Below are positions 164-61,341 of a stretch of 64,000 nt of DNA, piece by piece (positions within the stretch are counted from its first letter, which is position 1; each line of letters begins with the position of its first letter). The stretch is from Tubulanus polymorphus (taxonomy: Eukaryota > Animalia > Nemertea). The DNA is taken from the NCBI RefSeq assembly GCF_964204645.1, contig NC_134027.1, positions 23,150,560 through 23,214,559 on the forward strand, given 5' to 3'. The notes below the pieces were generated by a model that saw nothing but the letters and a program-made list of their open reading frames with translations, ran no database searches and was not told the origin of the DNA. The position numbers and the translations under genes are program-made.

Positions 164-3100
164 ATGCACCAAAACTCTCCAGAGAATTCGAACCCGTTGC
201 TGCACAAATAGGAGAATCTCTTGAATTTGCGATAAACTACGACGCGAATCCAACTGCGACAACTTTAAATTGCAAGCATGATGGAGCAAACTTTGAAACT
301 AACGTGATTAAAACCAGTTTAATGCAATGGGGTATCATCATACAATCAGTTCAGGCGTCTGATTATGGATCTTATTCGTGTAGACTCAAAAATTCAATTG
401 GTGGTATAGAAGTCACCCTAAAACTCATTCAGGCGGGTAAGTACTACTGCAGGCGGAAGTGTTTATTTCCCCCGAAACGGCGTTTTCAAATCTGCAGTCG
501 TAAATAACCAGCTTCTTGGTGGCATACAACGACATTCTATTGTGAGATCGTAATCGTCAAGTCTGTTTAAGGTGTGAGGATATCTTATCTCTGGTAGATC
601 GTGTTTTAGTTTGGTTTTTTAATTGAAAATATCTTACCTACAGTTGTAGACTATTTCAGGAAAGGTCTGGATGGCAAAGATTGTGACAAATGATGATGAT
701 CCTTATATTGTGTCTATTATTTCTGTTGTGTACACTCTAAACTGGGAATAGGCACGATCAGTTCTTTTTGAAAGTACCCTTATCTTTTATCTTTTTTTTC
801 ATTTTAGGACCTCCACAAACTCCATCAAATCTGTCAATCGTCGCGAAGACAGCTGTATCTGTGACGCTGAATTGGTTTTCAGAATTCGAGGGTGGCTCCG
901 AACAAACGTTCACCGCCAGTTACAGGGCATCAAACTCCACAAAATCCGTTAATAAAACTGAAATACCCGACCCAGGTTATAGAAAACTGGTGCAAACGAA
1001 AGTAACGGGTTTAAAACCAGCAACTGATTATCAGTTCAAAGTGAAAAGTGTCAACTTAAATCGTGGTGATAATACAAGTCCATTTGCTGATATAGTTACA
1101 GCAAAGACTAACGGTAAGATTGAAGACACGTCATGTGTAAAACATGCATTGGGAAGGGAAGAGATACAGTTAACCTTGCCTAACCTATTAAAGCGGCACC
1201 GGCAAAATCGGTTGGCTAAAGTTCAATTTTTTTAATACGATAGAAAGTCAGAAATGAATTTCGTTTATATCGAGTAAATCACCGGAAGTCCGAGTTGGCC
1301 ATGTGTGAGTAAGCCAAGGTTTTATGCAGTTAAATATCAAATATTACACGTCTCTACTTTGATACGGTGGACTGCTTAAAGATGTATTTTTCCATCTTTT
1401 GGTGCATGCGTTTTCATTACTAGCGGCACTTCATCACAAATTATTTCGTAGTTCACTTCAACAATGTTCACTCATCAATGTTTCAAATCTAGGAGAGTTT
1501 CAGCCTAGGAGAGTGCAATTTAGCCTCTATCATTCAGTTCATGTGCATCTTTTTCAGCTATTCCCACTTCTATAAATACGGTGTTGAAACAAGCTACGAT
1601 CGCACAGGAAGGAAATCTTGTCCTGGTGAAATTATCCTCGTTTCCGTCGAAGTACAGCGTCTATGTGGAATACTGTACGAAGGATACGAACCAGTGTAAT
1701 TCTACCAAACCGAAAAAAACCGATGGTTCGATAAGTATAACGTTTAAAATCGATCCGGGCCATGAATACAATTACAAACTGATTGTTACTGAGAGTAGTG
1801 ACGTTATTGTGAGCAAACTGCTTCAATTGAAAGAAGAAGGTACGTATGAAATATTGTCAGTGAGTTCTATGAAATTCATTTTGGTTAATTTACGCTGGTT
1901 GACAACTCAGAGAGATAATGAACATAAGCAACTCATAGTCTTATCACCGAATTTTCATTTTCACTGATTGAAATTGAACATAATTTGTGTAACTGTATCA
2001 GATGGCGGCTGTGTTTTTCAGTGAGTTAAGCAATACGTATCATATGTGTAACTTGTACACATATTGGTATTCAAAATATCTGAATTACTTCTAAAATTGG
2101 GCATCTTCTTTTCAGTTGATGACAAGCGGACTTTAGTTCCACTGATTATTGCTTGTGTGGTTCTTGGTAGCGGTAGCATAGCGTTTACTCTGGTGATGAT
2201 CTTATTGATAGTACTTCTCATTATAATACTGAGAAATGGAGTTTGGAATATGAGGGGAAAGTGAGTTTTTAAAGCAATTTTTTACCCGATCGTGTCATTC
2301 CCGCACGAAATGCCCTGTTTTGAATGGTCTAAGTAGAACAGCAATGTCTGTCAACCGTTGCTTTGAACTTGGCACAAACCATTAAAAGAAACGACGAAGT
2401 TCCTTTATCAACGATTCACCTCATTAATTCCGAGATAGGTTCATGAATTTTGATGACAAGCATATTTTTCTTGATACTACAAAATGGCTGATTAAAAGTT
2501 TCCAAATTTGATGAGATGATAACCTAAAAGCAAAACGTTTATACTGGACACGGGCGTAACTGGTTTTATTACATGTTATGTCACTTTTGAGTCAATTAGA
2601 ATCCCATTAATTCTTTTAAACCGATCATTGAGGTATCAATGACTTCATTTGCTAGATTTAAATTTGGTACCGAACGTAATTCGTCAAAATTAGTCTTTCG
2701 TTTCAGAAAAACCGATGAGTCAACACTAGGTAAATAAAAGCTTAATGTAGAAGAAGAGTTGAAAAATATTTCATCGCATTTGTGATTGAATACGATCGAC
2801 GATTTATAAAGTCTATGTATTTTGTTATAGTATTGATTATATCGATTGTTCCTGAATGGTTTTCAATATTGTGATTATTACAGTTTATTCAAACAGTAAT
2901 GAAGCCCATTGCAAAGACTCACGTATGTATATTCGTGACATCTTATACCTTCTTATCTCCCTGTGAAATGCGTTCACTATTGATAAAATCATATTTCAGA
3001 CGCTTACGCCGCGGCAAAACCGTTCGAAAATGTGGCTTTTAGCGGTATGTATTCTTGGTCTTCTTATTACCATACATAGGCCCTATAGATTTTCAGGATG

Positions 3101-3433
3101 ATGTCCTGAACAAAAATAAGGCATATCCTGGATTCTCTGTATCCAAACCATTGGTTGGTTGCTTATTTGAAGTCCCTAACAAGTTACCACACGTGGTAGG
3201 AACGAAATAAGGGATCTGAAAATTGGAAATCGATGTACAGATAGTTGGATGTAAATTTCATGGACCTTTGTTTCTAATATTAATTTCCAAAGCTTCCCGG
3301 CCGCATCCTCAATTTTGGTCAAGTCCTGATTTTTTTATCTGCATGCATCTATTACGTTTAGCCTTTTATTTTTCGTAATTTTAAAGCCGAGTCTGAAATC
3401 GAACCGAACCATTATGAAGAAGTGAAGAAATAG
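164..3433 (+). CDS. IgSF receptor R1, 3' part: Ig - FN3 - stalk domain - TM - tyrosine tail (5' exons lie before the window)
   Basis: Exons 164-436 (Ig, DYGSYSC), 808-1113 (FN3, VTLNW...GLKPATDYQFKV), 1558-1839 (stalk), 2116-2260 (TM), 2707-2729, 2884-2922, 3000-3044, 3387-3433. All have AG/GT ends and compatible phases. The tail reads KKTDESTLVYSNSNEAHCKDSHAYAAAKPFENVAFSAESEIEPNHYEEVKK*. Confidence 0.88.
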
Positions 3434-3555
3434 CAAATACGTACTGTTTCGACCAGCCGGAAATGTTTGCTGACTTTGAGAAGACGTGTTACCTGCAATA
3501 GATGACCCTTTCACGCTAGATATTGATTCGAACTTCGCTACTGGATACCATATAA

Positions 3556-3811
3556 TACGGTGGCTGATTCGGGCCGTGTAAAGAAAAATTACAGACGTTG
3601 CAAATTTTTCTTTACGGACGCGTGATAAAACGACTTCTTCTCGCTTTATCGCGCAATTAAACGAATAAATTCCGTTTTATCGTGGCAATTTCAAGTTTCA
3701 ACGTGTTGTAATTTTCGTTTAATTGCGCTATAAAACGAATTTTAGGCGACCGTTAAGAAATTTGCAACGTCTGTGATCTTTTTTTTTACATGGCCCGAAT
3801 CAGCCACCGTA
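3556..3811. mobile_element. MITE with long terminal inverted repeats and TA flanks (Tc1/mariner-type), just downstream of the R1 stop
   Basis: TA-CGGTGGCTGATTCGGGCC...GGCCCGAATCAGCCACCG-TA; the inverted match continues inward (acagacgttgcaaattt / aaatttgcaacgtctgt). Confidence 0.8.
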
Positions 3812-5019
3812 GTTTATCAACTTGTGCGTATGAACGATTTACGTAATCTAACTTGTTTATAAGTTGCATGGATTCAGCGACGTACTACAAAAGTGATGAT
3901 CCTTGCAGCGAATTGGAAAATATATTCTGTTGATTGTCTATTGTTTTATATGAATTGAATTAGATTTTACGTTTTAATATCATTGCTTTGTTATCATAGT
4001 CATATTATTTATGTTAATCTTATGAATGAGGCTTCGCCTTAATTACTCTGTAAAATTGACCAGACGCGAGTTTCATTTAAATTCATGGAAAGTTTTCTGT
4101 AATGAATTAACGAAACAATAGAATTGTGTATAACAAATCCGTTGGTCCTATATCTATAAAGCATCTCCATCGTTGTATTAGTCTGATCATAGTTAATTAA
4201 ACGTGCCTCATGTGACCTGCGGAACATTTAAAGTGTAGCGCAATTCCGAAAGTGTAATAATGATCGAATTTCTGTTGATTGGATTGTAATTTTTGACGTC
4301 TCGGGTGAAGTCCTAAACGCATGTTGAGTGCGAACGATCCCGTTTTGAAAGTGCGGATAAATTGTCAAATGTCTGGTGTTTTATAGTTTATTTTCAATTA
4401 GAAAAATCTCGAGCGAAGGTGAAGGGAGGATTGAGGAAAAGTATTTTATCCCTATCTTGTATGCTCTTTTTATTTTGTAATCAGGAATTTTTACTGTAAA
4501 TAATTTGTGAAAACTGAAATACACGTAAACGTTAATATGATGGTTCCATTTTATTTTTGAAAGGCTCTCAATTTTCTACTTCTTTTAAAAGAGGATTGAT
4601 CTTTAATTTACGTTTAATGAGTTTTGAAGGAGCAATCGATCCACGAAAGCTAACTGGATTTTGGAAAATTATCTGAATTATTTGAAATTCCGTCTTTGGA
4701 CTCGAACCTATTAGGTCAATTTCAGTAAGATGTAGATGAGATCTAAAAAAGCCAAAAAATCAAAAGCCATCCTTTTCTTGAACCATCCGATATAGACATT
4801 ACGAAGTAATCGTGAAGTCGGTTCATGCTGTATGAATGAAAAGTTACCTACTTTTCATCTTTCGTAAAATCAAAATCTGTGAAGACGGTGAAATGACTGG
4901 TCTGTGTCAAATTACAGCAACGGTAACAGCGGGTGAATGACAAATTTTTTTCGATTGAATGCTGTTAAAAAGTCTAAAATCCAGTGTGGTAAGGCAGAGC
5001 CGATTTATTTATTAGAATA

Positions 5020-5455
5020 CAGCAAAACATTTCGCGAAAGTTGGTACTTCGATAGGCCATCACAACATAGTGCCTAGAAACTGGGAATATCTTTATTAAG
5101 TCTATCCAATATGGTACGGCTGAGCTGATTGGTGATATAAGACAGCCACAAATTTAGCGAAAGAGGGGACCACGACAGACCGTCGCACAGAGTGCCTAGA
5201 AACTGGGAACCTCTTTTTATGTCTATCAAGTATGGTACAGCAGAGTTGATTGATTTATCAAAAAAGCGCTACAAACATCGCGAAAGTGGGGACCTCGACG
5301 GAACGTCACAACATGGTGCCTAGAAACTGGGAACCTCTTTATTAAGTCTATCAAGTATGGTATGACAGAGCTGATTGGTGACAAGGACAGAAACAAACAC
5401 CGCGAAAGTGGGTACCTCGACGGAACGTCACAACATGGTGCCTAGAACCTGAAAA
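5020..5455. repeat. Minisatellite, ~122-bp unit, about 3.5 copies
   Basis: tgcctagaa recurs at 5071, 5193, 5317 and 5439, with similar sequence throughout each unit. Confidence 0.85.
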
Positions 5456-6965
5456 CGTCATTATTCTGGAAGCTTATATTATCATTCGACATTGATTTAT
5501 GATATATCTTCGAAAATACTAGACTGTCATATAACAATTCCCAGGCATGAATATGAACTCGCTTTTGCGGGTATTGTTTATGATGACTATAGATGCGTAC
5601 CACGTACCTACCTTAGCGTCACTTACATTCTAGATCTTGATTGAACTCGGTATTTTTTATATCCGATCTCAATCACTGTTTGAAACGAGTGCCCACTTTA
5701 TTAGAAGTTTTCCATTATTAATTCTGGTAAGTAAAATCGGCTACAGATATTTCCTCCTGCGAATAGTTTTTATTTAAGACCATTAAATTCGTTTTCTGGG
5801 TTTTCATAGTTACACCTTTTTGGCTTGATTTAAGTGAAGGAACTTAGAAAGGAATAATATCAATCATTGATTTTAAAATCCATGACGTGTATGTTGCACG
5901 TGGTCAAAATTATACTAGTTTGGTTTTCTCATTCGCGGGATCATGTGGATTCCGTACCAAGGATGCCCCGGCCTGCCTATAGCTCTGAATAGATCGGCCT
6001 ATTACTGAAATATGTTACTGGAGATAAGACTGGCAATACGTCTGTCAAAATATACGAATTGACAGAATAAGATCGAATCTGTTGTGAATGCAATTAACAT
6101 GAGTTAGACGGTATTTTGATGAAGACAGTGTAAAAAGATACAGGCAAAAATACGATTTGATTCATAAGAAAATAAATCTGATTATTCACAGAAAAACATT
6201 AATTATCAATAACAAATGACAAATACTTTTTCTTTCTTCTTTTCTCTCAAACATTTAGGAAATTCATTGAAAGTTCACTTCCCCAATTTCAATTTTCGAA
6301 TCATGGCTAGCTCATTTCCAATTCTTAAGTTTTTAACACCTCTCTTTAAATTCTCAAAATATTTGTAATCTATAATTTTACGGTTCACATATGCCAAATA
6401 AACCACATCTTTGTTTATTAAATAACAATTGTTAGAAATATCAACCTTCGTGATTTTCATCAAGCATTTGTCAGATTATTGATTATTGATTATTGATTTA
6501 CTTTCGTTTTCAATGATTTCACAGCGACGCTATTTTGAGTTGATTCAAGCGTAGAATTCTAATAGGAAATGAAAATCATATTTTGTAATCGATGACGCTT
6601 ATGTTATAATCCAATAAGGCTTAGTCTTGTGAACCAAAATACAAACGACGTAAAGCAAAAAACAAACAAACATGCTGCAAGTTTTCCAAATTATGATAGT
6701 TTGGTACCTTTTTATTTCTATGAACAGGAGCCGCTGGATTCCGCGTCTGGATTGTGCCGAGTGTTGCTGGATATCAGAAATTGACAGAAGCTACGACATA
6801 AGAAAACATCCCACTCGCTCCTGACTCGTGACTAGAAGACATTGATGAATGATTTTGAGGCTTACGTTTGGAAATTTACTATCGTCAATTCGTGAATAGC
6901 ATCCATACATCAATATTGACCACGTGTTATTTCGTTTCCAAAGGAGTTCTGAATCTACAGGCAGC

Positions 6966-9900
6966 ATGTATAGAAACGTAAGAAAACTGCCATTTCAACT
7001 AACACTCTACATCATTTATTTCAAGAATATTATCTACACTGAATTGTAGTTTATTTATCAATTCTGTAGTAAAATGCGCACGTATGAATATAAAACCATA
7101 TCATGTTATGAGTAGCAGAATACGCTGAAAGATATCTTTTTCTATCTAAGTTACGTAAGTGCTTGCTCGTGACTGCGATGCTGTGTCTCACAAACACAGG
7201 AATAAACGGTAAGTGAACATCGATTTTTTCGTACATTTTAACGCTAGGACATCATAACTCAAATGCAATGCAGTTGATTCAACTTGTAATCCTGATGATA
7301 TGGTGATGATGGGTCGATCAATGAATCAATGAATCCGTCATGACTAGCGAGACATGAAATATGTACAATGAAATATAGGTACGCGGCTACGATGTTTATT
7401 TTGTTGTTAAAAATTACTTAAATCTTTGTCATGACTTACTGAGTGCCATTTAAGTGTTGAAAATAACTATTGCTTATGCGTCGATGGAATATCTGATAAT
7501 TGCTGGGTATCCTTTTTAGGACGGGCTCCACCGATTTGTGACCAACGAGAGAACAGATTTTGCCCTCCGAACAATAGTAAGTACATAGATACAGTTTTGA
7601 GATATTCGCGATAAACAATATTCAGCCAAACCATTCATTGTAAGATTGACACAATGAACATAATAAAAATTAGGTTAATATCAACGTCCTGACGATGATT
7701 ACAATGGGTTTTCACATTTTCCTGATATTCAACAATTGTGTCGTATTAGAACAAGTGAAAAATTGATTAGATTTTGGGTATTGTAGGTTCATATTTCCGG
7801 AGCTCTAAAACATACATGGTTTAAGAGAACTTGGTGGAATCTGGATAGCTGATCGGATCCTTTAGGTCAAAGGTCATGGTCATCGGAAGCTGATTTGCAT
7901 TTTTCATTTCCCGCCTTCATTAATGGGTCGACATGTACGCTCAGGGTGTATATTCTGTTGTCAGGCGTTTCACCTGACGTTGGGCATCAGTCGTCTTCGG
8001 CGACATTCTAGTTTGATAATGGATTTCGAGTGGAAGTGCACTTTCTGTCCAGCCAAACCATTGAAGAGAATTTCAGAACGTGCCAAGGTCATTTTCATTT
8101 TATTGTCCGTCACAAACGCCTCATTTCACTTTATCCATCAGCTAAACAACGACAAAAACAAGTAACTTTTCCCCACGCATAAGTGTTCCAGTGTAACTAT
8201 CACTGAAGCCCGGTAAACTTTCACTGTGAGTTAATTTGGTGCTGAACGTTACGATTGGTGCTAAACGATGGTCATGTGACTTTATGAACTCTTTCGAAAA
8301 AAACTGTTATTCCTTTAATAGGTCAGAGTGACGAATAACTAAATTATGCGTCATTTCATTGAGCGTGAAATGTATTTACAAATTGATCTGATCCGAGTTC
8401 GGACAGGGATTATTCTTCTGATCGTTTCGAGTTCAAAGACTTCACCAATAGACAAATTATCGAAATTGTATGACATGTTGTTGGACAAAACCTTTTATTG
8501 ATTTTAAAGTTCCGCCATGATTCAAGATGGCTGATAGGATGTCAATTTTGTTCAGCAAACACTTGTGAGCATGGTATAGGCTATGTCTACTGGCTTCCAT
8601 CTTTGTTCGGCTAATCTTCTTGTGAGCAGGATGCAGGCTTGCTGGATGAAATGTTTTGAAAAATTGTTTTATGAAATGATGTGAGCTTAATTGTGTGGAA
8701 GAACCCTATCGATTTCAGAGGTTCTACCTTTCAGGATGGCTGACTGGCCATAAAGAGAAATCGTTGGAACTGCTTCTTACTCATTGCGGAGTTGAACCGA
8801 GAGTCATTTGCATGTTTTGTATATTCATGCCAGCAACACATTTAGCTTGTTTCTACTAAGATAACGTACCTTAAATCACTCGTAGTCTATTCATTCATTC
8901 TACATGTATCACATAAAATAAAGTTTTGTGGTTGAGGTTTTATATTTATTACAGTACCACCGGATGGACCTCGTATAACATCTCAAACCGACCAACGCCA
9001 TCAACAACATCGTCACGGTACAGGAGTATTCACCATTAACAATCACATGAGACGGTTCCATGCCTTTTGCTACGGGTCTGATGTATAGATGGAGTGGTGT
9101 CAATCTATCAGGACAGTCTAATAATAAACTCAGTTTTATAAGAATCAGACGAACCGATTCAGGTGTTTATACATGTAGAGTATCGAATGGCGCTGGATCA
9201 GTTACTGGCAGTATAACTATCAATGTTTTCTGTGAGTATTCCTTTAACTATAATAGAGGGAAGTTCATAGTAAATAATTAGAGTCTGTTCTTGGGGAACT
9301 ATCACTGAACTCCGATACACTTGTTCACAGAGGGTTAAGTAAGTAACTGCACGTTATGGTAAACGTATCACTAAGGTACATGACTGATGGTGGAATTTGG
9401 TCATACGAACCCATGAACTTTTACGTAAGCAAGTCTTTGGGAGTAAGCGCTGTTTTATATTTGCAGCACTGGCACCCAGGCTAGTGGGCCAGTTCTAACA
9501 TCTCAACCGATCGCAACCATCAACAACATCGTCGCAGTACAGGAGAATTCACAATTAACAATCACATGTGACGGTTCACAGTCTGGAGCTACAGGACTGA
9601 CGTATAAATGGAATGGTGTCAATCTATCAGGACAGTCTAATAATATACTTCGTTTTAAACCCGTCAGGAGAACTGATGCAGGTGTTTATACATGTACAGT
9701 ATCGAATACATTTGGATCAGTTACTGGTAGAGTTAATATCAATATTTTATGTGAGTATTTAAACGTGAACACAATATCATATTACTCTTCATTCAAATTC
9801 TATTAACGTTAAAAACCATTTTTAGAAAATTCATTGATCATCATATCAAATTAAATGAACATTTGAAATAGCTGGATCTCGGCTTAAAAATGTTGAGGGA

Positions 9901-12900
9901 GGCTCGAATTGCAACAGAGAATATCGTGCTTAACCGTTTACACCCCAGACTCGTGTCATTCGAGTGAGTGCCATTTTTGTGAATTGATATTCACTGCAGA
10001 TTTCCATCTGCCTGATGTTCAATCGTCACGGTGGTGATCGGGCATGGCATGATTTTCGAAATCAGTGGCTCTTGGACAGAGCACTGGAACAACCAGATTT
10101 TAGAAAATTATTCGGAACGTATTTGTGTGTTGTTTTTGACATATACACTATGGGTTATATTTCATTCGTTTGTTAATACAAAATCCTGCGTATAATATAT
10201 ATTATGCTAATAAGCTACATTTGGATTTAATTTGACACAATCACTTTTTCCTTTATTTCAGACCCTCCAAGCAGAGTCACATTGCAAGGACCGGCGTCAC
10301 CCGTTCAGGAATCTACATATGTTGCAATAAGGTGTACATCTACAGGGGGTAATCCGGCACCAAACCTTTCCATAACTAGAACACCAGGTGGCAGCACTGT
10401 GAAACAGGGAGTTAGTCCTCCAACATATTCAACATCCGTCACTAAAACAGATAACCAGGCAGAATATCGATGTGCAGCTACTGGGGCTGGTATATCGACA
10501 CCAATGATTAAAAATCAATTCAAATTGACCCTCAACTGTGAGTACTGTAGATAGTTTTAGAATATTTCATGTTCATTGAAATAAGTCAAAATATCCTAAG
10601 CAACATTTTCGGTCCTTCTGATGAAACGGGGTTTTTATTCGACGAAACGATGTCAATATTTTTTTCAATAAATTTTTGGTAAAAGGGCCTGTCATAATTT
10701 ACACATCCAGTTGATTCGCACTAGTTGCAGACGGCAATTCAAGTTGCGAATTCAAGTAGCGAAGCAACTGGCGGAGAGCCTGATATCACATTTACGTTTC
10801 CTAACCAGATTCTAATCAGATTCAACTCACGAGCTGGATATAGATCTGCTTACAATAAAACCTGGTAGATGCTGCTCGGATGAACTATTTTATTTCATTT
10901 ATGTGATTTTAAGTTAAAAAGTATAATTACGCCGAGACTGATTTCTAGATGTTTTTCTGCACACAGCAAATTCAATACGTATACACAACGTAAGCGAAGA
11001 TCTTCTTTTCTTTTTATTCCTATCAGATGCACCGAAACTCCCCGGAGAATTCGATCCCGTTGCCGCAGAAATTGGAGAACCTCTTGCATTGACGATAAAC
11101 TACGACGCAAATCCATCAGCGACAACTTTGAATTGCAATCACAACGACACAAATCTCGAAACTAACGTCATAAAAACCGGTTTGATGAAATGGAGAATCT
11201 TCGTACAATCAGTTCAGGCGTCTGACTATGGATCTTATTCGTGTAGACTCAAGAATTCGATTGGTAGTGTGGAAACAACATGGAAACTCACAGAAACTGG
11301 TATTAAGTGCGGCGGCAGGCTGTAGTTTTTATTTCATCGAGACGGCGTTTTAAAATCGCCAGTCATCGAAAACCTCTCTCTTGAGACAAACAACCAGAGA
11401 TCGTTTTGATGCCTTTATAATCATTTTTTGAAACTGTAAGGAATAGATATCATCTCAGCCTTAGTTTTTGTATAACGTTTCTCATGGATGTTCTGAAGAC
11501 ATGAAAAGTCTGTATGACGAAAATTGCGATAAATGGTGGTGATCTTGATGTGTCGAATAACTTGAATGGGTCTTCAAAAGCCTATTACACAATACAATGC
11601 TTAATCTCTAAACTGGAGCACAAACTGTCTCTTTTCGCAAGAAGCTTCATCTTACATGTTTTCATTCCAGGACCTCCACAAACTCCATCTAATTTATCCG
11701 TCGTCGCGAAGACAGCTGTATCTGTGACGCTGAATTGGGTTTCTGAATTTAAGGGTGGCTCCGAACAAACGTTCACCTTTAGTTACAGGGCATCAGACTC
11801 CAGAAAGTCCGTCGACAAAACTGAAATACCCGACCCAGGGTATAGAAAAAAGGTGCATACGAAAATAACCGGATTAAAACCAGCAATTGATTATCAGTTC
11901 AAAGTGAAAAGTGTCAACTTAAATCCTGGTGATAATACAAGTCCATTTACTGATATAGTTACAGCTAATACAAATGGTAAGTGTGAGGTTATGTTACGTG
12001 TACAGCATACATTATAAGAAATGGGATACAGTTAACCTCTGGCACCGGCAAAATTCATCCGAGTTTTTTCTATATGAAAAGAAATCAGAAAATGATTTCA
12101 ATCGATTTATATCCTAGTAAGTCAACAAAAGTCTGAGTTGGCCAGTTCAGAGTCAAGATTCTTGGCCGGTGAATATTACCGGACAGTAAGTACATTGCAC
12201 GTTGGATTTCTCGAAGGTTTATTTCTCCGGCCAATAAAGAGAATTTCGTATGCTCCTCTATCAACGTCATATCAATTCGTGGGGGAGTAGTAGCCTAGAA
12301 CAGCCATTTCGTTGATCAACCGGTTCAATGAGGACAATACGTCTGCTGTAAAAGTGCGATATCTACAATGTTTTCGTGCTTCTTTTTCAGCTATACCGAG
12401 CGCTGTAAATACTGCACTGAATCAAGCCACGATTACTCGAGACGGAAATCTTATCCTGGTCAAACTACCATCGTTTCCGTCGAAGTACAGCGTCTACGTT
12501 GAATACTGCGCGAAAGATACGAACCGAGAATGTAATTTTACCAAACCGATAGAGAATACCGATGGCAAAATTAGTAAAACATTTAAAGTCGATGCTGGCC
12601 ATGCGTACAACTACAATCTGATTGTGTCTGAGGATGGTGACGTCATTATCTGCAAACTGCTTCAATTGAAAGACGGTACGTAATAGGTTAGCTGGTTCTA
12701 TTCTCATTGCGGTTAATTGAGACGTTTATTGACAATATTCAGAGAGACAATGAAAACATAATTATCACCGCGTCAAATGGTTGTACGGTAGTTATTTTGA
12801 AATGATATTGCGTTTCATTTAACCAATATCATATCCGTAGATTGTAAACATATTCAAATATCTGAATTTTTCTGCACATCATCTTTTTTCAGTTGTTGAC

Positions 12901-17579: not shown

Positions 17580-17586
17580 TATTTAA
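17580..17586 (+). promoter_or_regulatory. Candidate TATA box of the LamG/C-type lectin gene
   Basis: TATTTAA about 50 bp upstream of the ATG at 17631; positional evidence only. Confidence 0.35.
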
Positions 17587-17630
17587 GTTGACCGTTTCCC
17601 CTTTGCTTGAGCTCAACATCTTCATTCGAT

Positions 17631-18420: not shown

Positions 18421-18481
<61 letters not shown>

Positions 18482-20420: not shown

Positions 20421-20473
<53 letters not shown>

Positions 20474-47979: not shown

Positions 47980-48215
47980 AATCGCACATGACTGTGTTAT
48001 ATGGCATTTCACATTCAGGAATGTATCACACGTGTGATTAACCTTCAGGGCTGTTACCCATTTGTGATTCACATGTGTAAAAATGGGACAAAATCACGCG
48101 TATGATTCACATTCAGGGATGTATCACACGTGTGATTTTTAAATCACACGTGTGATCATGTCCTATTTTAACACATATGAATCGCATGTGTTTTTTAAAA
48201 CATCACATGTGTGGA
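47980..48215. repeat. Low-complexity palindromic repeat rich in CACACGTGTG / CACATGTG
   Basis: atcacacgtgtgat occurs three times, plus variants, in an R4 intron. Confidence 0.7.
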
Positions 48216-50299: not shown

Positions 50300-50500
50300 T
50301 CGAATTTTGTCATCGATTTTTTTTTTTTATAAATGCCTGGAGCTTTATTGAGTGAGTAATCATTGAACGTATTTGTTTTGTGACGGGCTGATTGTGGATA
50401 ATTTCTTAATCTTGTGTCATGTCTGTGGTTTACTTGGTTGTGTTGAAACAATGCTCTTATTGGCACTTTTCCTTCATAGTACGTACTTGTCGCCAATATT
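50300..50500 (-). mobile_element. Possible LINE ORF2 C-terminal remnant
   Basis: LFQHNQVNHRHDTR...APGIY resembles the N..H.y.TR motif at CR1/L2-group 3' ends; short and degraded. Confidence 0.35.
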
Positions 50501-52193
50501 TGCGAGGTCTAGATTTATAATGTCTTAAAATTTTAGGATTTCATATTTTCTTGATAATTGAGATGTGGGCGCATTATAGCGGCTTTTATCAATAGATTGC
50601 CGTTTTGAAAAATGATGTCGATTTGCTGTTTTAGAGAAGAGTGTTCTCTGTCCTGCATAACAAAAATTTACATATATTTGGCCATGGAACAGCAGTTCTT
50701 TCTCCATGCGAGATATATTGAAAATGCGTCTTGTACTTCGAAATGTAGCATTGAAAAACTGAAAACAAATAATACGAAAGAAAGGGCGGTCCTCTAGCAC
50801 CTAAGGCGAGCCGGCGGATCCGCGTCTGTGATACAGAGCACGAATAGACTGAGTAAAATGTGGCATTTTCCCGCATAATTAGACTAAACTGAATACAGTA
50901 CTTATTCGTGAATTCTTACCTTTGAAAAAATATTTAGAAAGATCATGCATGCACTTGAATCCCCTATCGTTATACTAAAAACACGATTGAAATGAGATTT
51001 ATTTCAACTGTTTTTGATTCTCACCTGCTACGGTAAATTCTGTTTTACTATCTGGGAACATGCTCATGTAATCACAAAATCCTTTTCCCAGCATAATCAT
51101 CTGTACATTACTGATATATATGTTAACCATATCGCCCGGCTGTGACGTCACATTGTCCGGTGTATCGGGGCTCAATATTAAAGGCAGTTTTACGAGGACA
51201 GTTTGTCTTATCAAACTCATACGGTATTAAACGGCTACCAAATATCATTTTCTGACCACAGAAATTTTTACTGGGCGGTGAAACCTGACATTGTACGTCA
51301 GCGGTGCCACCAATTCTAAAAACTACTGGCGTAACAACTACCGTAAGGTTCGTATCCGCTGCGTCTATACAGTTCTGCTGCTGTCCTAAACAAGAAAAAT
51401 TAACACACAACGATTCATATTCTAATTACGGGTTGATAAAGCAATTATTTTGAATTAATTATTAATCATATCAACAGCATGCGGCCATTGCGAGCGAAAG
51501 TCGATGAATGTCGTCACTTATTCGACAGCTATCAAGGTTCGAATCCCAGTCGTCGCTCACTAAGAATCCGACCACACATTTTCATTAGCTCATTACAGAG
51601 CCGTGGGGGGGGGGGAGGTTTCGTGCGAGAAAGCCAAAATGTTTAGACAGGGTAAAATCGTTGAAATATGAATAGCTGCACTAAAGTAACACGTCAACAA
51701 TTTTGAAAGTCTTGTGGTTTGTTTTCTTAAAAGTCAAGAAGGCAATATTGTCAAAATATAACTGCAAAGTAACGGGTTTTCTGTTTGCAGCCGTCTGAAG
51801 TAAATTTGCATTTCCATTGGAATAAGTTACTCCCGACTTCAATAGAATAAGCACGGGCCAAATTTGCCTCAGGCCTGCTCCGTAACAATTTTTCGGAATT
51901 AGAACTCGCCGGTAGGCCTACTTACCGTTTATTTTAGTATACACCATTAGACACATGAACAGCGTCACGACAAAACACTCCTACAATTAAAACATTCCGG
52001 CAAGTCGTGGTCCTCTCAGTTCCAGCAGGGCGAATAGTTGTCGATGCGGCATTTGTCGACAACGACACTGCATGGGTGGAGAGATTCAGCCTCGAGTGCT
52101 GTTCGGTTCCGTGTCGCAGCACCGCCGAAGGGGAAGTAGGGGTCACCACCTCCAGGTGATTTTGTATTTTGTACTTATGTCGCTGACAGTTGC

Positions 52194-52315
52194 AATTTGA
52201 GCGTTTGCGGGGACGTCGAATTTAATTTTCCACACATCCGAAATAAGGGGATAAAATTTGAGCGTTTGCGGGGACGTCGAATTTTATTTTCCACAAATCC
52301 GAAATAAGGGGATAA
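52194..52315. repeat. 61-bp tandem duplication
   Basis: aatttgagcgtttgcggggacgtcgaattt...atccgaaataaggg occurs twice. Confidence 0.9.
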
Positions 52316-53176
52316 CTATTATGTCACTCAATACGTGGTTTTTAACGTGGTTATGGACACATGGACTTAATAATATGTAATTATATTGGCCTTACCTTGA
52401 TAAACATGCTGCTTTGTTGAAATCACTACAAAACTCTCATGAAGATTAATTTTTTTTTAATTTCACTCAGGGTTTTTAATACACAAAGCATCATATAAAT
52501 TCAAATGAATTCAATAATATATGCGCACTAGAACTTGGAGTAATCAGTCTGAATTATCACTTCAAAATTAGACTCTTCGTTATTCGCTACCCATCAACTC
52601 GTCACTGAACGACTCGCCGATCTGTCGAAGGAGCATTCCTATTTGGAACGTTCATTGCCCCGAGCTCTCCTCCCAATTTCTAACTTGGTATTCACGGTCG
52701 CCTTTACAGGTAGCAGCGAGTAACGTAGAGTCAAATGTATATGATTAGCATAGATTACATAATTAGAGCCGATGATGACTACGTAACAAAATATATGGAG
52801 GTAAAATGTTAGAAAAAATACAATTCTATTCATACAAAACTAAAAGTTTATATACACAAATATTTTCCAATGCTATAGAAATAAATATAAGTCTTGTACC
52901 ACGGGTCAATTTAATCATGTACAGGGTGAATTTATGGGGTTGACTCGGGGATCCCGGCCCCTGCCTTCCAATCGAGGTTGCCATTTTTGTCAACACAGAG
53001 GTCGCAAAAATCCATTTGACACTCATCCGGATATTGAATGTTTGTGTTTATCTCTTATATTATGCATAATACTGAGGGAGGGCCCCGCTAATGTGACTTA
53101 GCGTTACACACTCCTAGTATGTCCTATATTTCACGCCGGGAAAATGTCCCTAATCAAAGTTGGTTTTCTATTTCAT

Positions 53177-56100
53177 TCACATCTTCACATCTTCATAAAA
53201 GTTTGGATCGTTTTCATGAGGCTCACCTGATGATGAAGAAAAACAGAAAACAACGAAATTAATGAATGTCAGGTTTGTTCCATATCAGACAAGTACGGCT
53301 TTCTGAAAAGTGACGAGGTCGCAGAGTTTTGAACGAGTCACGAGGTTTTCCCGTAAATTTCCCTCAATTGAAAGAATCTTTGATTAACATTTAGAAACAA
53401 ACGTAGGCATGGCAATTTAGACTCACCACTAAAAGCCACATTTACATACGGCGTCGCCGCTGCATAATCGCCTGAAATATAACAATATAGATATGTACGA
53501 ACACAAAGGACTGTTAAAATTGGCAAAGATACGGGAGGTTTAGAATCCTAAGCTCATACGTACGTGAATCTGCGTCGTGGGTTTTATTTTCATTACAGCT
53601 AGTATACTCTGTAACGATACAAAAAAAAATCCGTTAACATCATCAATGATATTCAATATTATCATATGTGAATGTATATTTCCTTTCTTTTAGAGATCGG
53701 ATTAAGTTTTGTAAATGCTGATTTGTATTTTCAATATGATCAATATTTACCTGTTGTTGGTTCTTTAGTTTTTCTGAAATAAAAGGGTAATTTCATTGCG
53801 ATTTCGATGGTTATCGATTCAAAATACATACATATTTCATTACAGCGGGTCAGTATTTATTTGGGGGGGGGGGGGGGGTAGAATTCGAACCTACTCAGAG
53901 AGGTGTAAAGGTATATGTTCAAACAACCACGTGTTACCCATTATTGACATGCTGCTTTTTGGCATGCAATCGAATTTGGGACTTTCTGTTACTCGGAGGC
54001 AATGGAAAATCTAGTCATTTTGAAAATTGATAAAGCCATTGGAGAGTGTTATTTTCATGTAAAAGCTGTATCCTTTTTGTGCACTCTCTATATAAAGGTG
54101 TAATTAATATCAAATAAGGCAGTCAGGAAAATTCACCCAATCAGTCGCTTGCCGGTTCAGACTGAATGGAAGATTGTTTGAATGAACCAGAACCGAATTT
54201 CCCAATTATGTACTTCGATTTAAACAAAACATTCTGTAAATTTGTCCGTCGATCACACAACTATATCTGTACTTCGATTTCCGATTTCAAAATCAAACCC
54301 CCTGTTTCGTTTTCGGCAGGTGCGGTGAGTCTGTAAGGGGCACTCCATCAAAATATCAAACGAAATTAACCAAACCAAATAAGTAACATCGACAATCCCT
54401 ATTTCAAGATCAATACCAGGCAATCAAAATGATTCACGAAGATAACGCGGTTATACCGCAGTGTATTGGCCAATAAACTTACGTTTTTCTCAATCTGTCG
54501 ATTAAGACGATACCTCGGTTGTTTCTGAGTAGCTGTATCAATACTACGATGAACAATATTACAACCAGAACAAACGATATGCTACCAAGAACAACACCAG
54601 CATCAGATTGATGTACTACTGAAAATTAGATTATGCTTTAGTTGGGATAATCGGTATTTTTCTAAATCTACCGAATACTGCAAAGTTCTTGTAAAAATCA
54701 TCTACCGAACAGGCAAATTTTCCGTTCATATTGATAATCGCTGCGAGTGGCGTAAAGATCGCATAATCATCAGACCACCAACCGGCGCCCGCGTACGTTC
54801 TACATTCTTCCAATGAGCCGTCTGCTCGCAAAGATGCAATCAATAGTTGCAATAAATTTATAAACTTATACATGGCCGGGATCGATATTAACCATTCGAG
54901 CAGAGCACTGATGAAAAAACTCAGTGCTTGAACGACGAGCGAGGAAGCAGGAAGCATTGCGTGCGCATTTGCTTACCATTTGTTTTAGTTGTAACTATAT
55001 CGGTAGATAAACTTGTATTATCACCAGGATTTGAGTTGACACTTTTCACTTTGAACAGATAATCAGTCGCTGGTTTTAATCCGGTTATTTTTGTTTGTAC
55101 CAGTTTTCTATAACCGGGATCGGTTATTTCTGTTTTATTGACGAATTGCGTAGAGTCTAGTGCCCTGTAACTGAGGGTGAACGTCTGTTCGGAGCCACCC
55201 GCAAATTCAGACACCCAACTCAGAGTCACGGATTCAGCTGTTTTTGCAAGAACTGTCAGATTTGTCGGGGTTTGTGGAGGTCCTTAACAAGATAGATACA
55301 AGAATAGGTGATGTAACCTCTCGAATTGATGGTATGCTTAATATTGCGTTTCTAGGATAGATTTCTACTGAAACGTTTTGTAATACTTCATATACTTACC
55401 AGTCTCTGCGAGTTTGATTGTAGCCGTTATGCTCCCAATTGAATTTTTAACTCTACACGAATAAGTTCCATAATCAGACTCCCGGACGGATTTTATGATT
55501 ACATTCCATTGAGTTTTGCTCATCGTGGCAAAATATGAGGCTTCCCTCATTCTGTGACTGCATCTCAAGGTTGTGGGTGTCGGATTCGCGTCGTAATTTA
55601 TCGTCAATTTAGCAGTTTCTCCTATTTTTGCTGCAACCGATTTAACTTTTCGCTTAAGCTTTGGTGCATCTATCGGAAATGAAAAAAAAAGAAATATTTG
55701 GAAGCACTTTCTGCGAGTGACCTGACTACAATATTCATAATCCTAGCATTGGTGCTTCAAGCTAGGCACAGATCAACCCTAACGTGGCAATTCAACTGAT
55801 CGGTGACTGATGTCGACCGTCACATTTCTGCCACCGCGATCTCAATCGATCTGAGTCTAGCTATGGTTGTTTACGGAACCGTCGACGAGTCCCTAGAATT
55901 GAAAATGTTCTACTTCTACGATGCGACGGAACCGGTGTGCGCGCTGCGGTGGGCCGACAACCGGGGCCGACAACAGCAAATGAAATCAAATCCTAACGGC
56001 AGTCTATTGGCCGTCTGATGAATTTGTTTGAAACTATCATCGTAATTCTGTTGGGATAATTGCCTTATCTAGGGGAATTCGGTTATTTCAGTTTTGAAAA

Positions 56101-59100
56101 TGTGAGTAATATCGGCGTAAACAAATTCTAGCCATATTTCGATCAAAATCAAATACGTACTCAACGTTATTTGATTTTTGGTGTTCCGCATCTTCCACCA
56201 AATATATGAAAATTTAAGCGCAATATATCGGCAAATCACTGGAAAATTGTTAAATTTTTCGTAGAGGCAAATGGTGCATTTAACCTTTATTCTGAAGGTT
56301 GTATATTAGAACGAGTCTCATGATTTACCCATAGAGAAACTACGACAGGGGTGTATCTGCATATCAGTACAGATTAACAGGCCAAGGGCGTTGTTGAAAA
56401 AATTTCCTTTGACGATCCGACATTCAGAGGCGTTGTCAATGAAATTTAGGCTGGAATTTCAATGAAGTGGCTGGGATCGAGTCGCTGGTCGTTTGCGTGG
56501 ATTACCTTTATGTAAAGTTGCTGGGATCGAGGGGGCTGTGTGTTAACGCAGATAATCCCTTTATAAAAGTAGCTGGGATCGAACGACTGGGTGTTTGCGT
56601 GGGTGTTTACCCTTGTACAAAGTGGCTGGGATCGAAAGACTGTATGTTATTATGTTGGATATCGGGCGAGCGGGTTTTGATTTTTATACAACAAAAGACA
56701 ACGATGCTTTGCTGATGCGGGCGAGCGCATTTGACTTTTCAAAATTTGTATTAGGGACTTTTTATGACGCAAGCGGCATTTGACCTTTTTTGAAAAATTA
56801 TGGTATTTCTTTGTTTGGCCTAGTACCGGTATTGCAGATTCTCCAATCATCATCTTTAAACGGTTATCACCAAGTAACCTCAAATATAGCTATACACATT
56901 ACAAAATCAATATTCATTTGGTGATTGTCGGATCGTCGAAGAAAACTTCCTCGACATTGCTTGGTTTCTGATTGTCGGATTGTCGAAGGAAATTTTTTCG
57001 ACAATGCTTCTAATTGTCGAGAGAAGTTCTCGGGACGAAAACCGCATTACGCAGTTTGTGCCTACGACCTCGGCACAAATCAACCAGAAAACGGATACCA
57101 GCATACCGATTACTACTTACATTGGACATCGACGGTAGCGATATTACTGATAGTAAAACCCACTGTATTTGCCACTTGACATCTGTATAGTCCTGAATCA
57201 GCTTTTGATAAATCATGTATGACATGATGATCAATGTTCGGTCCGATTGATTTCCAGACACCCGGCGCAGTTGAGAGTTGCCAGGTGTAAGTGAAATTAT
57301 CGGGGTTTCCATCAGTTGCAGCACAGAAAAACCCAATTGAATTGCCTTCTGTAATTAACGACTTAACTGGAGTCAACGAAACAGAATCAACGGCATCTGT
57401 AAAATATTACCCGGCATTCAGAAATGACTGTGTAAAAATAGGCCTGCATGTAGTGATTATTCCACACTTGTTCATTACACACTTTTTCATAGATTAGGTA
57501 AAACCATAGACAGGTTGACAAGTCTGATAAGACATTTCGCAAATTCTTGGGAACTATCTGTATAACTTACGGGTGACCGTTAATACAACTTTATTAGAAA
57601 TCATTGGTGTTGGTATACCAGCCCCAGTAGCTGTACATTGATATTCTGCCTGGTTATCTGTTTTATTGACGGATGTTGAATATGTTAGAGGACTAACTCC
57701 CCGTTTCACAGTGCTGCCCCCTGGTGTTCTAGTTATGGCGAGGTTCGGTTCCGGGTTACCCCCTGTAGCTGTACACGTTAAGTTAACAGATGTTGATTCC
57801 TGAACGGGTGACGTCGGTCCTTGTAATGCAACACTATTTGGTGGATCTGAAATTCAACGAAATGAAGATGGTCAAAATATATCGTTCATCGCATCTGAGG
57901 ATTGGTAAGTGTAGCTAGATTCCGTATTGTTACCGGAGCTCACGCCAACACAAAACCTATGAAATTGTGTGTAGAAAACTACTTACTATTTCAGCACCTT
58001 ATCAAGGATATTATTACTGGACGATGTTATTTGCGGTGTTGACCTTTTGTATGTGAGCAAAATGACACAAGTTAATGAAATACTTACATTGAACGTTGAT
58101 AGTGATTCTACCAGTAACTGATCCATATGTATTCGATACTGTACACGTATAAACACCTGAATCAGTTTTACTGATTCGTGTAAAACTGAGTTTATTATTA
58201 GACTGTCCTGATAGATTGACACCACTCCATTTATACGTCAGTCCTGTAGCTCCAGACTGTGAACCGTCACATGTGATTGTTAACGATGAATTCTCCTGTA
58301 ATGTGACGATGTTGTTGATTGCGGTGGTTGGTTGAGATGTTAGAACTGGTCCACTCGGGGGCGCTGTAAATATCGGAACAGAATAGATTTAAGTTTTTAC
58401 GATTCACCTTTCATTAGCATGCTCCAGATTCATTTATTAGGATTTTCATTATACACAGCTTAAGAATGAAAGTATGACACAATGCATCAATAGACTACGA
58501 GTTAAATGTGGCATTGTCAATCTCATCCGACTAAACTAAATAAAGCATCTATTGGTAAATTCTAACTTGAGGACAAAAATGACGTAGAAAATCAACTCAA
58601 AGCGGCAAATAATTCAATGCCAATAATTATTACTAAACACGATTAAAATGTATGAATCATTCGTTTATAATTCTCACCTACTACAGTAATTACTGTTTTA
58701 CTATTTCTGAAAGAGTTCATGTAGTCACATGACCATGTCCCAGCATCAATCATCTGTACATTAGTGATGCGTAAACCATAACGTCCAGCTGTGACGTCAC
58801 ATTGTCCAGTGTACCGGGGTTCAGTGATAGTTCCACGAGGACAGTTTGTCTCATCAAACTGAAACGGCATAAAAGGGCCAGACAAGACTATCCTGAGACC
58901 GCAGAATTTTTTACTAGGTGGTGAAACCTGACATTGTACGACAGTGGTGCCACCTAGTTTTACAACTGCTAGTGTTGCAACTATCGTGATTGTCGTATCC
59001 GCTGCGTCTATACAGTTCTGCTGCTGCCCTATACAAGGAAAGTAAACAAGTAACTATTCCTCTCTAATTACATGTTAATAAAGCCATTATTTGAATTAAT

Positions 59101-60093
59101 CTTATCATCGACGAAACATAACCCTGGTTCGTATTAATCATAAGAATCCAGCACTTATTTTTCATTTTTACTCGCCGTTTATTTTCGTGTACAACATTAG
59201 ACACATGAATAGAGTCGTGACCAAAAACTCCTGCAATGAAAGAATCATTAGATGAGAGCTCTGAGCTCTACATTGTCGACAAACGAACAGTTACCATGTG
59301 CAATCTTAGCGTTAAAAAAAATCAAGGACAAATATGATTTTCCACCCGTCCGAAATAAGAGGACCCTATTATGATCTTCGTTCAATCTCGAGTACTGCAT
59401 AGAATGAATTAGATTATTCTTTAAGCTTCAAATTACAAATAATTTTTCAATGTAAAATACATGGTTAAATACATGGAAATATACAGTTTACATACTCCTG
59501 CACAGTATTTTAACATAAACTGCAAGTTTTCTTAATCACATTTCTATCGTCTGAATTAGATAATTTACTAAATTTATGAATAGTTGTATTTCCTTTTCGC
59601 AGACGATTCAAGTTTAATTCACAGTAACAAATGCTCTAAAACCCTCGAAACCGAAATGAACTATGAACTCATAGTTCGTCTTATATTACACTATTTTTTA
59701 TATATTCCTGCTACCTTCATATTGTAATTCGAATCGTGGATAAAACATTATTATGACAGATTTGGTATAAAGCGGTTATGTGAGCTCAAGCGGTTATCTC
59801 TCGGTATCGTGGCGATGTAATCCGACAGGTTAGGCGTGGTCACCTGACCGGTAACTTTGATTTCTACCAAGTGGCACACTATAGTCAAAGTGCTGTCTTA
59901 AATCTGCTATAACTATCATAGACAGGGCTAGCAGTAGACAATTTTGACAAGAGTAGACAAAATAACACTGAACACATGCTATCTATAGAATTCGTTCTTC
60001 AAAAAATCTATTCCCCAAAGATTATGGCGGCAGGCTTGAGTCGACCCTGGACTCTACGATATGTATCTATATCGGTCTTACCTTGATGATCAT
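53177..60093 (-). CDS. IgSF receptor R5, intact ~706 aa: SP - V - 4 Ig - FN3 - TM - tyrosine tail
   Basis: Exons 60093-60082 (MIIK), 59230-59176 (signal; GC donor), 59028-58678 (V), 58363-58088, 57846-57571, 57396-57121, 55669-55400, 55282-54977 (FN3), 54618-54483 (TM), 53773-53751, 53608-53564, 53471-53427, 53226-53177 total 2121 nt with no internal stop. The tail ends EYTSCNENKTHDADSRDYAAATPYVNVAFSGEPHENDPNFYEDVKM*. Confidence 0.88.
56464..56665. repeat. ~52-bp minisatellite, 4 copies, in an R5 intron
   Basis: aagt[gta]gctgggatcga recurs at about 52-bp spacing. Confidence 0.8.
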
Positions 60094-60714
60094 GCTGCTT
60101 TATGAAAACCACCACAGAACCTCTTTAATGAAAATAGACAATCTTTTCAAACATTTCAATTTCAAATATTAAATATGAATGTAACGACACCCGTTCACGA
60201 AAACATAACTGATTGTTCTTTTAAGCGATATCTTCAACGATTGAAGTTATGCTAAAATACTCGTAATGTGGTAACATCGAAAATGAAAGTGTGTGTTTTT
60301 GACCTTTCATAAATGAAAGAGGAAAAAGAGGAAATATATAAAAGCCACTTTTCCTGGAATGTAAGATTTTCACGCGTAAAAGAACTACTCACACGAATAT
60401 TTCGAATTGTGAATCAATATCACTAATTGAATGGTGACAGCGTTCGCACAGTGCCTAAGAACGATATTTCGAGATAATCATTCCAACCAGGAAGTAAAAT
60501 ACAAGGACATTATAATGCGCGCTATGGAAATCATGAAAAAAAAAACTAAATTCAATGGACGGGTATTGATTAAGAAGACACGCTATGCAGACAGTTTTAT
60601 TTCGTGCCTTTATACGTTGTATGTAGAAACGAAAATGAAACAAAGAAGTCCAAACTGATATAAATATACGACATAAGATATGCTCCATATTTAACCAATT
60701 GTGACTGGAAAAAG

Positions 60715-60995
60715 ACACACTTCTCTACTGCCGATCTAAAGTCGGGGATTAAACGGCGCGGGTATTTCCTGCACTGAATGTCTACGTATCTTGGCTGATC
60801 CGGGCCATACGCGTATCAAAACAAGAGAAAGGCCCAGTCAAATATATGAGATAGGAATGCTCCGTAATTTACCAAGATTGAACTGCTACCGAAAAACAAA
60901 CACTTCTACTGTCGATATAAGGTCGATAACAAAACGGCACGGGTATTCCCCGCACTGAAGTAGGTCTACGTTTCGTGGCTTATCCGGGCCATATC
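60715..60995. promoter_or_regulatory. Duplicated upstream block of R5 with kB-like cores
   Basis: Two ~95-bp copies containing GGGTATTTCC (60760-60769) and GGGTATTCCC (60941-60950); similar to 42945-43030 upstream of R3. Confidence 0.45.
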
Positions 60996-61099
60996 AAAAA
61001 GAACGACATTCAATATACACTATAATATTAACTTTTTTAAACACACTCGCAAACGCAACCTTGAATGCAACTTTTCTCGTTTTCGGGTTCGCCTCTTAA

Positions 61100-61341
61100 A
61101 TGAAGAAAAACGAAAAACAACGAAATTAATGAATGTATCGCAATCGCAGGTCTCTTCAAGATCATACAAAAATGGCTTTTCGTAAAAAGGACGAGGTCCC
61201 AGAGTTTTGAGGTTAATAGGTTTCTTTTCGTAAATTTACCTTGATTGAAATGATTTTATATCTCCAGAAACATAGGCATGGCAATTGGGACAACTCACCG
61301 CAAAGCCACATTAACATACGGCGTTGCCGCAGCGTAATCGC
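61100..61341 (-). pseudogene. IgSF receptor R6 remnant: penultimate tail exon plus downstream intron
   Basis: 61341-61299 encodes DYAAATPYVNVA with a 2-nt deletion; the adjacent intron matches R5 53230-53426; the final exon is absent and the acceptor is disrupted by a MITE. Confidence 0.8.

Follow-up and report, generated by a model that had tools for sequence, protein, structure and literature searches.

What kind of receptors recur in a 64,000-nucleotide stretch of the genome of the nemertean Tubulanus polymorphus (NCBI RefSeq assembly GCF_964204645.1, contig NC_134027.1, positions 23,150,560 to 23,214,559 of the forward strand; the whole of it is called the window below)? When the window is compared with itself, paralogous exon blocks of 270–400 bases are found on both strands, with 65–90% DNA identity and expectation values (E) down to 1e-136, and these blocks coincide with open exons that translate to immunoglobulin (Ig) and FN3 domains. 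We assign them to two intact genes that are spliced in RNA (R1 and R5), three damaged copies (R2, R3 and R4) and one remnant (R6). In the original prediction, they were taken for a candidate allorecognition or innate immune receptor complex. Our own answer, held with slightly more belief than doubt, is that the T. polymorphus family to which they belong is likely one of paired recognition receptors, activating and inhibitory, comparable to those on vertebrate immune cells and moulded by pathogens, in which similar outer parts are carried on two unrelated tails. This reading arises because a second tail class exists elsewhere in the family; all loci in the window are of the short-tail class, and no match to a long tail was found within it.

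Much is known about paired Ig receptors of vertebrates, and clusters of tyrosine-motif genes of the Ig superfamily (IgSF) are known in a cnidarian and a tunicate. In the open-access literature, supplements aside, we found neither a published Ig pair system of the paired-receptor type in a nemertean nor a published description of the present family, whose genes are known as automatic RefSeq models only.

The receptor family

About 22 gene-level RefSeq models of the family were found, 20 of them on a 27.8-Mb contig and two on a 16.5-Mb contig, with isoforms grouped by name and collapsed to one per gene. All are from T. polymorphus, and they carry the automatic names nephrin-, SYG-2-, NCAM- or contactin-like. 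The members are assembled from nine modules in varying numbers. In agreement with the predicted variation in Ig number between copies, the full-length models with a transmembrane (TM) segment have three to nine Ig domains (five in R5) and zero to two FN3-type modules. Three models have no TM segment (P0002, P0037 and P0038) and are either secreted decoys or incomplete. The module next to the membrane in R1 belongs to no Pfam family, yet it folds as FN3, the model having a pLDDT (predicted local distance difference test) of 89; its best match is the FN3 of Tie2 (Z 9.1, root-mean-square deviation (rmsd) 2.0 over 79 residues). This FN3-fold module is missing from R5.

Protein searches, which were partly word-limited, and cluster look-ups revealed no orthologue elsewhere. 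One outside match, a fish FN3 protein (E 5e-4), was obtained, the other matches in the same searches being from T. polymorphus. With the V domain as query, the eight best matches are from T. polymorphus, followed by 23 weaker ones from other species; 11 of these were looked up and proved to be either unnamed or proteins with several Ig domains, from fish, lungfish, frog or acorn worm, and mostly match over short stretches. Sequence searches of the PDB gave generic Ig matches only. The earlier view of a lineage-specific, fast-turnover family without a named gene is supported.

Two tail classes

The tails were surveyed in the 19 TM-bearing models, with 300 shuffles of each. Nine tails are short (60–102 amino acids, aa), eight are long (151–300 aa) and two represent a third, short type. 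The motif YE[ED][VI] ends all nine short tails and none of the eight long ones (shuffled mean 0.01), and Y[VM]NV is present in six of the nine short tails and again in no long one. The pattern Y[AST]x[VI][DN], for its part, has 30 copies spread over seven of the eight long tails and none in the short ones (shuffled mean 0.29), while EPxYAxV is found in six long tails. The ITIM pattern (for immunoreceptor tyrosine-based inhibitory motif) occurs in every long tail, in seven of them at the same C-terminal site, and in none of the short ones; its count of eight barely exceeds chance, because the shuffled mean is 3.1 and the maximum 7.

By BLAST, no homology was detected between short and long tails except through P0009, a hybrid whose TM exon is of the long class and whose tail exons are of the short type. 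Among the long-tail models, P0007, P0028, P0012 and P0033 combine two tail heads with two distal tails in all four ways, a pattern that may be due to segmental duplication with conversion, to cross-gene splicing or to chimeric models. Searched against the Atlas, the long tail scored no higher than 0.82 and yielded no lead.

Pairing and module shuffling

The short-tailed P0029 and the long-tailed P0014, which are the two models on the 16.5-Mb contig, are 87–98% identical in all nine outer domains (93% in V), whereas their TM segments share 8 of 20 residues and their tails, of 70 and 273 aa, are unrelated. Both tail classes are also present on the 27.8-Mb contig. A clade of long-tailed members is rejected on the trees of V, IgA, IgC, FN3 and the FN3-fold module, the p values of the approximately unbiased test (p-AU) being 1e-40, 0.002, 7e-5, 1e-7 and 4e-85, respectively. 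On the ectodomain trees the tail class switches three to five times, at about the same frequency as with shuffled labels. P0002, whose V domain is truncated, was left out of the V trees and of the entropy values given below, and two partial IgA rows were left out of the IgA tree.

The modules themselves have also been exchanged. In P0007 and P0028, the stretch that begins with the last C2-type Ig and ends with the TM segment is 100% identical, but V only 70%, and a sister relationship of the two on the V tree is rejected (p-AU 4e-6). For P0016/P0017 and P0034/P0035 this relationship is not rejected, and V swapping is thus seen in one of the three pairs tested.

Variation and selection in the V domain

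We now turn to the V domain. Cys32 is present in 14 of 14 V domains and Cys100 in 13, the remaining one being truncated. Every full-length V domain retains both core cysteines and four more, six in all, and there is no tryptophan on the C strand. The most variable patch in the family corresponds to codons 38–58 of V in R5 (58853–58915, minus strand) and lies on the predicted C–C′ strands; this one patch differs in all 14 domains. The peak of variation is at residues 40–55, a value reached by 21 of 5000 shuffles over the 14 domains, and it maps to strands 45–49 and 54–58 of the structural model. Over the same domains the identity is 54% in residues 38–58, 64% in residues 93–116 and 78% elsewhere, the first two segments mapping to the predicted C–C′ and F–G strands.

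The V exons of R5 and R3, both short-tailed genes, are 90–95% identical outside the patch, 63–76% inside it and 45–54% in the flanks. The synonymous divergence (dS) between the two genes is 0.12 in the distal exons and 0.62 in the proximal ones. Recent exon conversion would give such a combination, since the V exons are alike outside the patch, the flanks are unrelated and the distal dS is low. The proximal domains are under purifying selection, with a ratio of nonsynonymous to synonymous divergence (dN/dS) of 0.2–0.4 between the intact R1 and R5.

The loci of the window

The exon models were built from coordinates and splice dinucleotides, and two sequencing runs, X2 and X5 (the latter from a second study), were treated as RNA solely since their contigs skip introns. 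The predicted plan of six paralogous loci is borne out by recurring paralogous exons in a shared order, with the difference that R6 is a remnant of about 300 bp. The start exon has 12 nucleotides (nt) in all four loci with a 5′ end, as predicted; the signal exon has the expected 55 nt in R3, R4 and R5, and 58 nt in R2. Each domain is then encoded by a single phase-1 exon, after which come the TM exon and the four micro-exons of the tail. A V exon is found in R3, R4 and R5, but not, as had been supposed, throughout: R1 and R2 carry instead an exon for a short peptide with two cysteines. Likewise, of the predicted one intact locus, one running off the edge and four damaged ones, R5 is open, R1 is open to the edge and R2–R4 have frameshifts or stops, R6 being a mere remnant. 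A translated search with 37 proteins, 36 of them from the family, found no seventh locus in the window; two additional matches (9286–9424 and 37914–38068) fall within introns of R2 and R3.

R5 (53177–60093, minus strand) is a single open frame of 706 aa, identical letter by letter to RefSeq XP_074644904.1. It consists of a start exon (60093–60082), a signal exon spliced via a GC donor (59230–59176), the V exon (59028–58678), four Ig exons (58363–55400), FN3 (55282–54977), TM (54618–54483) and tail exons (53773–53177). Pfam assigns its modules to V-set (E 3.8e-6), to Ig in four cases and to fn3 in one, and the tail contains TPYVNV and a terminal YEDV. Contigs of X2 join at least 10 of its 12 introns (the joints listed, 15 of 61, do not include the two 5′ introns), and X5 joins two. 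The R5 pieces in X5 differ by 0–7% and may be paralogues.

R1 (164–3433, plus strand) is the 3′ part of an intact gene that runs off the window edge; its translation equals the final 385 aa of XP_074644103.1. It includes an I-set Ig (164–436), FN3 (808–1113), the FN3-fold module that Pfam does not see (1558–1839), TM (2116–2260) and tail exons at 2707–2729, 2884–2922, 3000–3044 and 3387–3433, the short tail terminating in YEEV. The full protein has the two-cysteine peptide at its N-terminus. All seven introns are joined in X2 contigs and one in X5. Between runs R1 is nearly invariant, with 3 of 3658 bases differing from a contig of run X1 and none in three exon pieces of X5. A single X4 contig links an R1 intron (621–796) to the region of the R2 FN3 exon (11659–11917), possibly as an R1/R2 recombinant haplotype or as another paralogue. 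Between the two loci lies an array of about four repeats of 120–130 bp (4970–5465).

R2 (6966–14969, plus strand) is a damaged copy with no V domain, in whose introns V-exon fragments persist. It has a start exon (6966–6977), a signal exon (7151–7208), the 57-nt Cys-peptide exon (7520–7576), two frameshifted Ig exons (8955–9231 and 9467–9750), further Ig exons (10262–10537 and 11027–11299), FN3 (11671–11976), the FN3-fold module (12391–12675), TM (12893–13016) and tail exons (13485–14969). One X1 contig, identical in other respects, does not have the frameshift at 8985, which therefore represents either an allele or a slip of the assembly; X1 carries another lesion, a 2-nt insertion in the TM exon. 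Another comparison of R2 with an X1 contig gave 36 substitutions and seven gaps over 1332 bases. The 15 joints listed, of 23, include none that is spliced over R2, a blank that carries no evidential weight. The proximal exons of R2 are also under purifying selection (dN/dS 0.2–0.3), and its damage is therefore recent.

R3 (34353–42044, minus strand) combines an intact V exon (41244–40894) with a frameshifted Ig (40480–40197), two tandem Ig exons (39611–38976), a C2-type Ig (38869–38567) with a broken partial duplicate (38497–38244), two more Ig exons (37741–37457 and 37085–36816), a shortened FN3 (36566–36486), TM (36360–36192) and an intact tail ending in YEDI. We call R2 and R3 damaged and not dead, because open frames arise when the damaged exons are skipped (514 aa in R2, 718 or 745 aa in R3). 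R4 (44586–52407, minus strand), on the other hand, is a pseudogene. Five of its exons are broken: frameshifts or stops affect the V, two Ig and the membrane-proximal Ig exons, and the last exon has a stop. It has no FN3 exon, and its third tail exon lacks an acceptor. The V-exon frameshift is present in an X1 contig, with no differences over 1637 bases. A tandem 594-bp duplication with 99.3% identity (43404–44680) spans the last exon of R4 and its 3′ flank, and is either a recent event or an assembly artefact.

R6 (61040–61341, minus strand) consists of the last two tail exons and is truncated by a short repeat at 61342–61453. This is a high-copy repeat of very high read depth, with another copy (77% identity) at 32672–32791. 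Farther on, at 62006–62679 on the minus strand, there are broken frames that by eye look like the end of a retroelement and have no Pfam match. At 30002–32090 lies an intronless, broken sequence with LDLa, LRR and 7tm_1 matches in Pfam, of the GRL101/LGR receptor type; its LDLa part is read from the minus strand and everything else from the plus strand, the arrangement of a processed pseudogene whose 5′ end is inverted. Finally, a multi-exon gene of repeated beta-rich modules is situated between R2 and R3 (about 18700–27400, plus strand). It has six candidate exon translations, the five scanned having no Pfam match, and one weak match to the pentraxin PTX3 (E 0.07).

Proposed mechanism and its weighing

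For the signalling direction, the ligand, the immune function and the expression of the family, we infer the following. The C–C′ face of the V domain would be contacted by a ligand, probably either an adhesin of microbial origin or a self protein mimicked by microbes, and the ensuing receptor clustering would lead to phosphorylation of the tails by Src-family kinases. Short tails could then dock the SH2 domain of Src at pYEEV/I and Grb2 at pYVNV, resulting in uptake or activation; according to excerpts of PMC2888578, pYEEV binds Src SH2 at 1.1 μM and pYVNV is a tight Grb2 SH2 binder. In long tails, the EPIYA-like repeats would serve to recruit Csk and the ITIM an SHP phosphatase, by which the response would be damped; Csk is bound by EPIYA-A/B and by the EPIYA of Pragmin (PMC3593179, excerpts). 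The binding and signalling steps are derived from mammalian motif preferences. Exon conversion and unequal crossing-over would hold the pairs matched and yield the broken copies of the window.

Several points weigh against the paired-receptor reading. The family counts are from automated RefSeq models, and the four long-tail models with recombined heads and distal parts may amount to fewer genes. Only one pair of a short- and a long-tailed member exceeds 90% identity in V, and R1, intact and expressed, has no V domain at all. The V model is weak (pLDDT 60), its best matches being antibody and T-cell receptor V domains (Z 8.4, rmsd 2.9 over 97 residues). The mean entropy is lower in V (0.72) than in the FN3-fold module (0.88) and the membrane-proximal Ig (1.05). 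The dN/dS of V, 1.17 (interval 0.59–2.76), is not significantly above 1, and neither is the excess in the patch (dN 0.51, dS 0.23; Fisher p 0.13–0.28) significant; in addition, the patch was picked after the fact, and R3 is a damaged gene. The signs of the two tails are not clean either. This is because TPY[VM]NV, in six of the nine short tails, fits the pattern of the immunoreceptor tyrosine-based switch motif (ITSM), which is inhibitory in CEACAM1, while YxN is found in six of the eight long tails along with one match to hemITAM, the half form of the immunoreceptor tyrosine-based activation motif (ITAM), and loose double-tyrosine pairs occur in six of the nine short and also in six of the eight long tails. 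None of the 19 tails has a canonical ITAM, and none of the 19 TM segments has a charged residue.

A bolder form of this reading, which we regard as doubtful, is that of an independent CEACAM-like paired system of some 20 V-Ig receptors, with an inhibitory arm of EPIYA-like Csk repeats and an activating arm that works through Src and Grb2, free of ITAM and adaptor, and that would be a candidate for the specific rejection of grafts for which nemerteans have long been known. EPIYA-class motifs are familiar chiefly from effectors of bacteria, for example CagA. If true, this would be a third wiring mode for paired Ig receptors, and convergent on/off receptor pairs would reach into Lophotrochozoa with a different code, that is, Csk-type repeats versus Src/Grb2 sites. 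Testable genes have been identified beneath nephrin- and NCAM-like labels, and XP_074657813.1 and XP_074658381.1, which differ almost only in TM segment and tail, are a ready test pair.

A somewhat unlikely alternative is an adhesion or guidance code akin to nephrin/SYG, Dpr/DIP or Sidestep/Beat, in which variable V domains would bind in a cell-type-specific, homo- or heterophilic manner in nerve, muscle, nephridia and epithelium, and the tails would signal to actin via Src, Grb2 and Nck. The order of Ig domains, FN3 and TM resembles nephrin (PMC5996060, excerpts), RefSeq chooses nephrin-, SYG-2-, NCAM- and contactin-like names, and the purifying selection on the proximal domains fits such a role. 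The Atlas nephrin and VSIG10L-like clusters score 0.95, but they are tied there with Alr2, and because of this tie the Atlas does not choose among the three. Against an adhesion code stand the Ig count of three to nine among full-length models, the absence of YDxV from all 19 tails, the four of six window loci that are broken, and the fact that the protein searches found no orthologue outside T. polymorphus; titin, Robo2 and FCRL5 all outrank SYG-2 when the PDB is searched by sequence. The nephrin/SYG, Dpr/DIP and Sidestep/Beat families are not known to have two exchangeable tail classes, which also weighs against it.

Another reading is turnover close to neutrality, in which the functional receptors of a repeat-rich array, one or two in number, would shed copies by unequal crossing-over, with the V patch and the mixing of tails as by-products. 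The broken loci, the divergence of R2 from the X1 contig and a distal-exon dN/dS near 1, not significantly above it, are consistent with this. However, the class-specific tyrosine motifs are kept in the 19 TM-bearing models, the six V cysteines stay constant while one patch differs in every V domain, and the proximal exons are under purifying selection, and we therefore consider it improbable. We give equally little credence to a locus for allo- or xenorecognition like that of Alr, where self would be marked by allele-specific homophilic binding between V domains. The "Allorecognition 2" cluster comes first in the tied Atlas list, and the Alr plan of one exon per domain, V-set tip, FN3-fold spacer invisible to Pfam, exon shuffling and clustered pseudogenes is common to both (10.1101/2022.03.04.482883, excerpts). 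The nemertean Lineus rejects xenografts with memory, but the grafts of the cited work are between species (PMC2248247, excerpts). The residue pattern that defines Alr is not that of the worm family. Tubulanus is solitary, not colonial. Moreover, no allelic hyperpolymorphism was seen in the few samples, all of them contigs, and R1 hardly varies between runs, so the allorecognition part of the original prediction has little support.

Comparison with known systems

The activating receptors of the KIR, LILR and SIRP-beta type have an adaptor-coupling charged TM residue, in contrast to all 19 worm TM segments. Among lophotrochozoans, inhibitory Ig receptors of oyster are listed in excerpts of PMC11999971, and the PTC1/GRC, PTC2 and LG5R of Biomphalaria resemble the worm genes in that they are clusters of membrane genes of the single-pass type, in which fragments as well as presence/absence variation occur (PMC13712769, excerpts). 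LG5R is EGF/scavenger-F-like and not V-Ig, however, and according to the same excerpts it has a genetic link to parasite resistance, which is lacking for the worm family. The FcoR of Botryllus are, likewise, an invertebrate multigene IgSF family with a V tip and with tyrosine motifs that are ITIM or of the activating type; their genes recombine with one another and are spread over more than one chromosome (PMC12582321 and PMC12065747, excerpts). According to the same excerpts, a Sushi domain, fester partners and the swapping of motifs inside a single tail are features of FcoR, whereas the worm family swaps two unrelated tails between genes and has FN3 folds; Pfam scans of five whole proteins showed no Sushi domain, an Ig module following directly after V.

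Nephrin, Sns and SYG-2 have conserved orthologues across bilaterians. With them the worm family shares the Ig array, one FN3, TM and tyrosine tail, from which the automatic names originate. Nephrin has a fixed set of eight Ig and one FN3, and YDxV sites (PMC5996060, excerpts), while the worm family has variable numbers of both modules, about 22 models, many broken copies and no orthologue found. Membership of nephrin was rejected, as the Ig number is not fixed at eight and YDxV is missing.

The analogy with the Alr genes of Hydractinia, drawn in the original prediction, stands for the architecture and fails for membership, which was rejected on the cysteine pattern and Ig number. Shared with Alr are the clustering of genes and pseudogenes, a separate exon for each domain, the V-set tip, exon shuffling and tyrosine tails (10.1101/2022.03.04.482883, excerpts), and the membrane-proximal FN3-like fold missed by Pfam, present in R1 and absent from R5. 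On the other hand, domain 1 of Alr, as described in these excerpts, lacks both the B- and the F-strand cysteines, which the worm V keeps; Alr have one to three Ig domains; and their paralogues average 24% identity, compared to 62–85% per domain in the worm. The six invariant cysteines of Alr, three each in the last Ig and the FN3-like fold, correspond to two plus two in R1, which has in addition a canonical FN3 between these modules, and canonical ITAMs are missing from the worm tails. No Alr structure is listed among the fold matches of the V and FN3-fold models, which excludes nothing.

The CEACAM pairs (CEACAM1/CEACAM3, and Ceacam of Xenopus) differ from the worm family in that no specific sequence homology was found, in the FN3 and FN3-fold stalk of the latter, in its six-cysteine V domain with no core Trp, in the lack of a canonical ITAM, in long tails dominated by EPIYA-like repeats, and in that it belongs to an invertebrate. 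They are alike in a V-set tip over a varying number of Ig domains, in similar outer parts on two tail types, in motifs residing in the receptor's own tail and in membrane-less forms, here among the models (PMC5112662, excerpts). With no sign of membership, the T. polymorphus family appears to resemble the CEACAM pairs most. The exon-limited homogenisation with divergence at the CC′C″FG face that these excerpts report for CEACAM pairs has its likeness in the V exons of the short-tailed R5 and R3, homogenised outside the C–C′ patch and divergent inside it.

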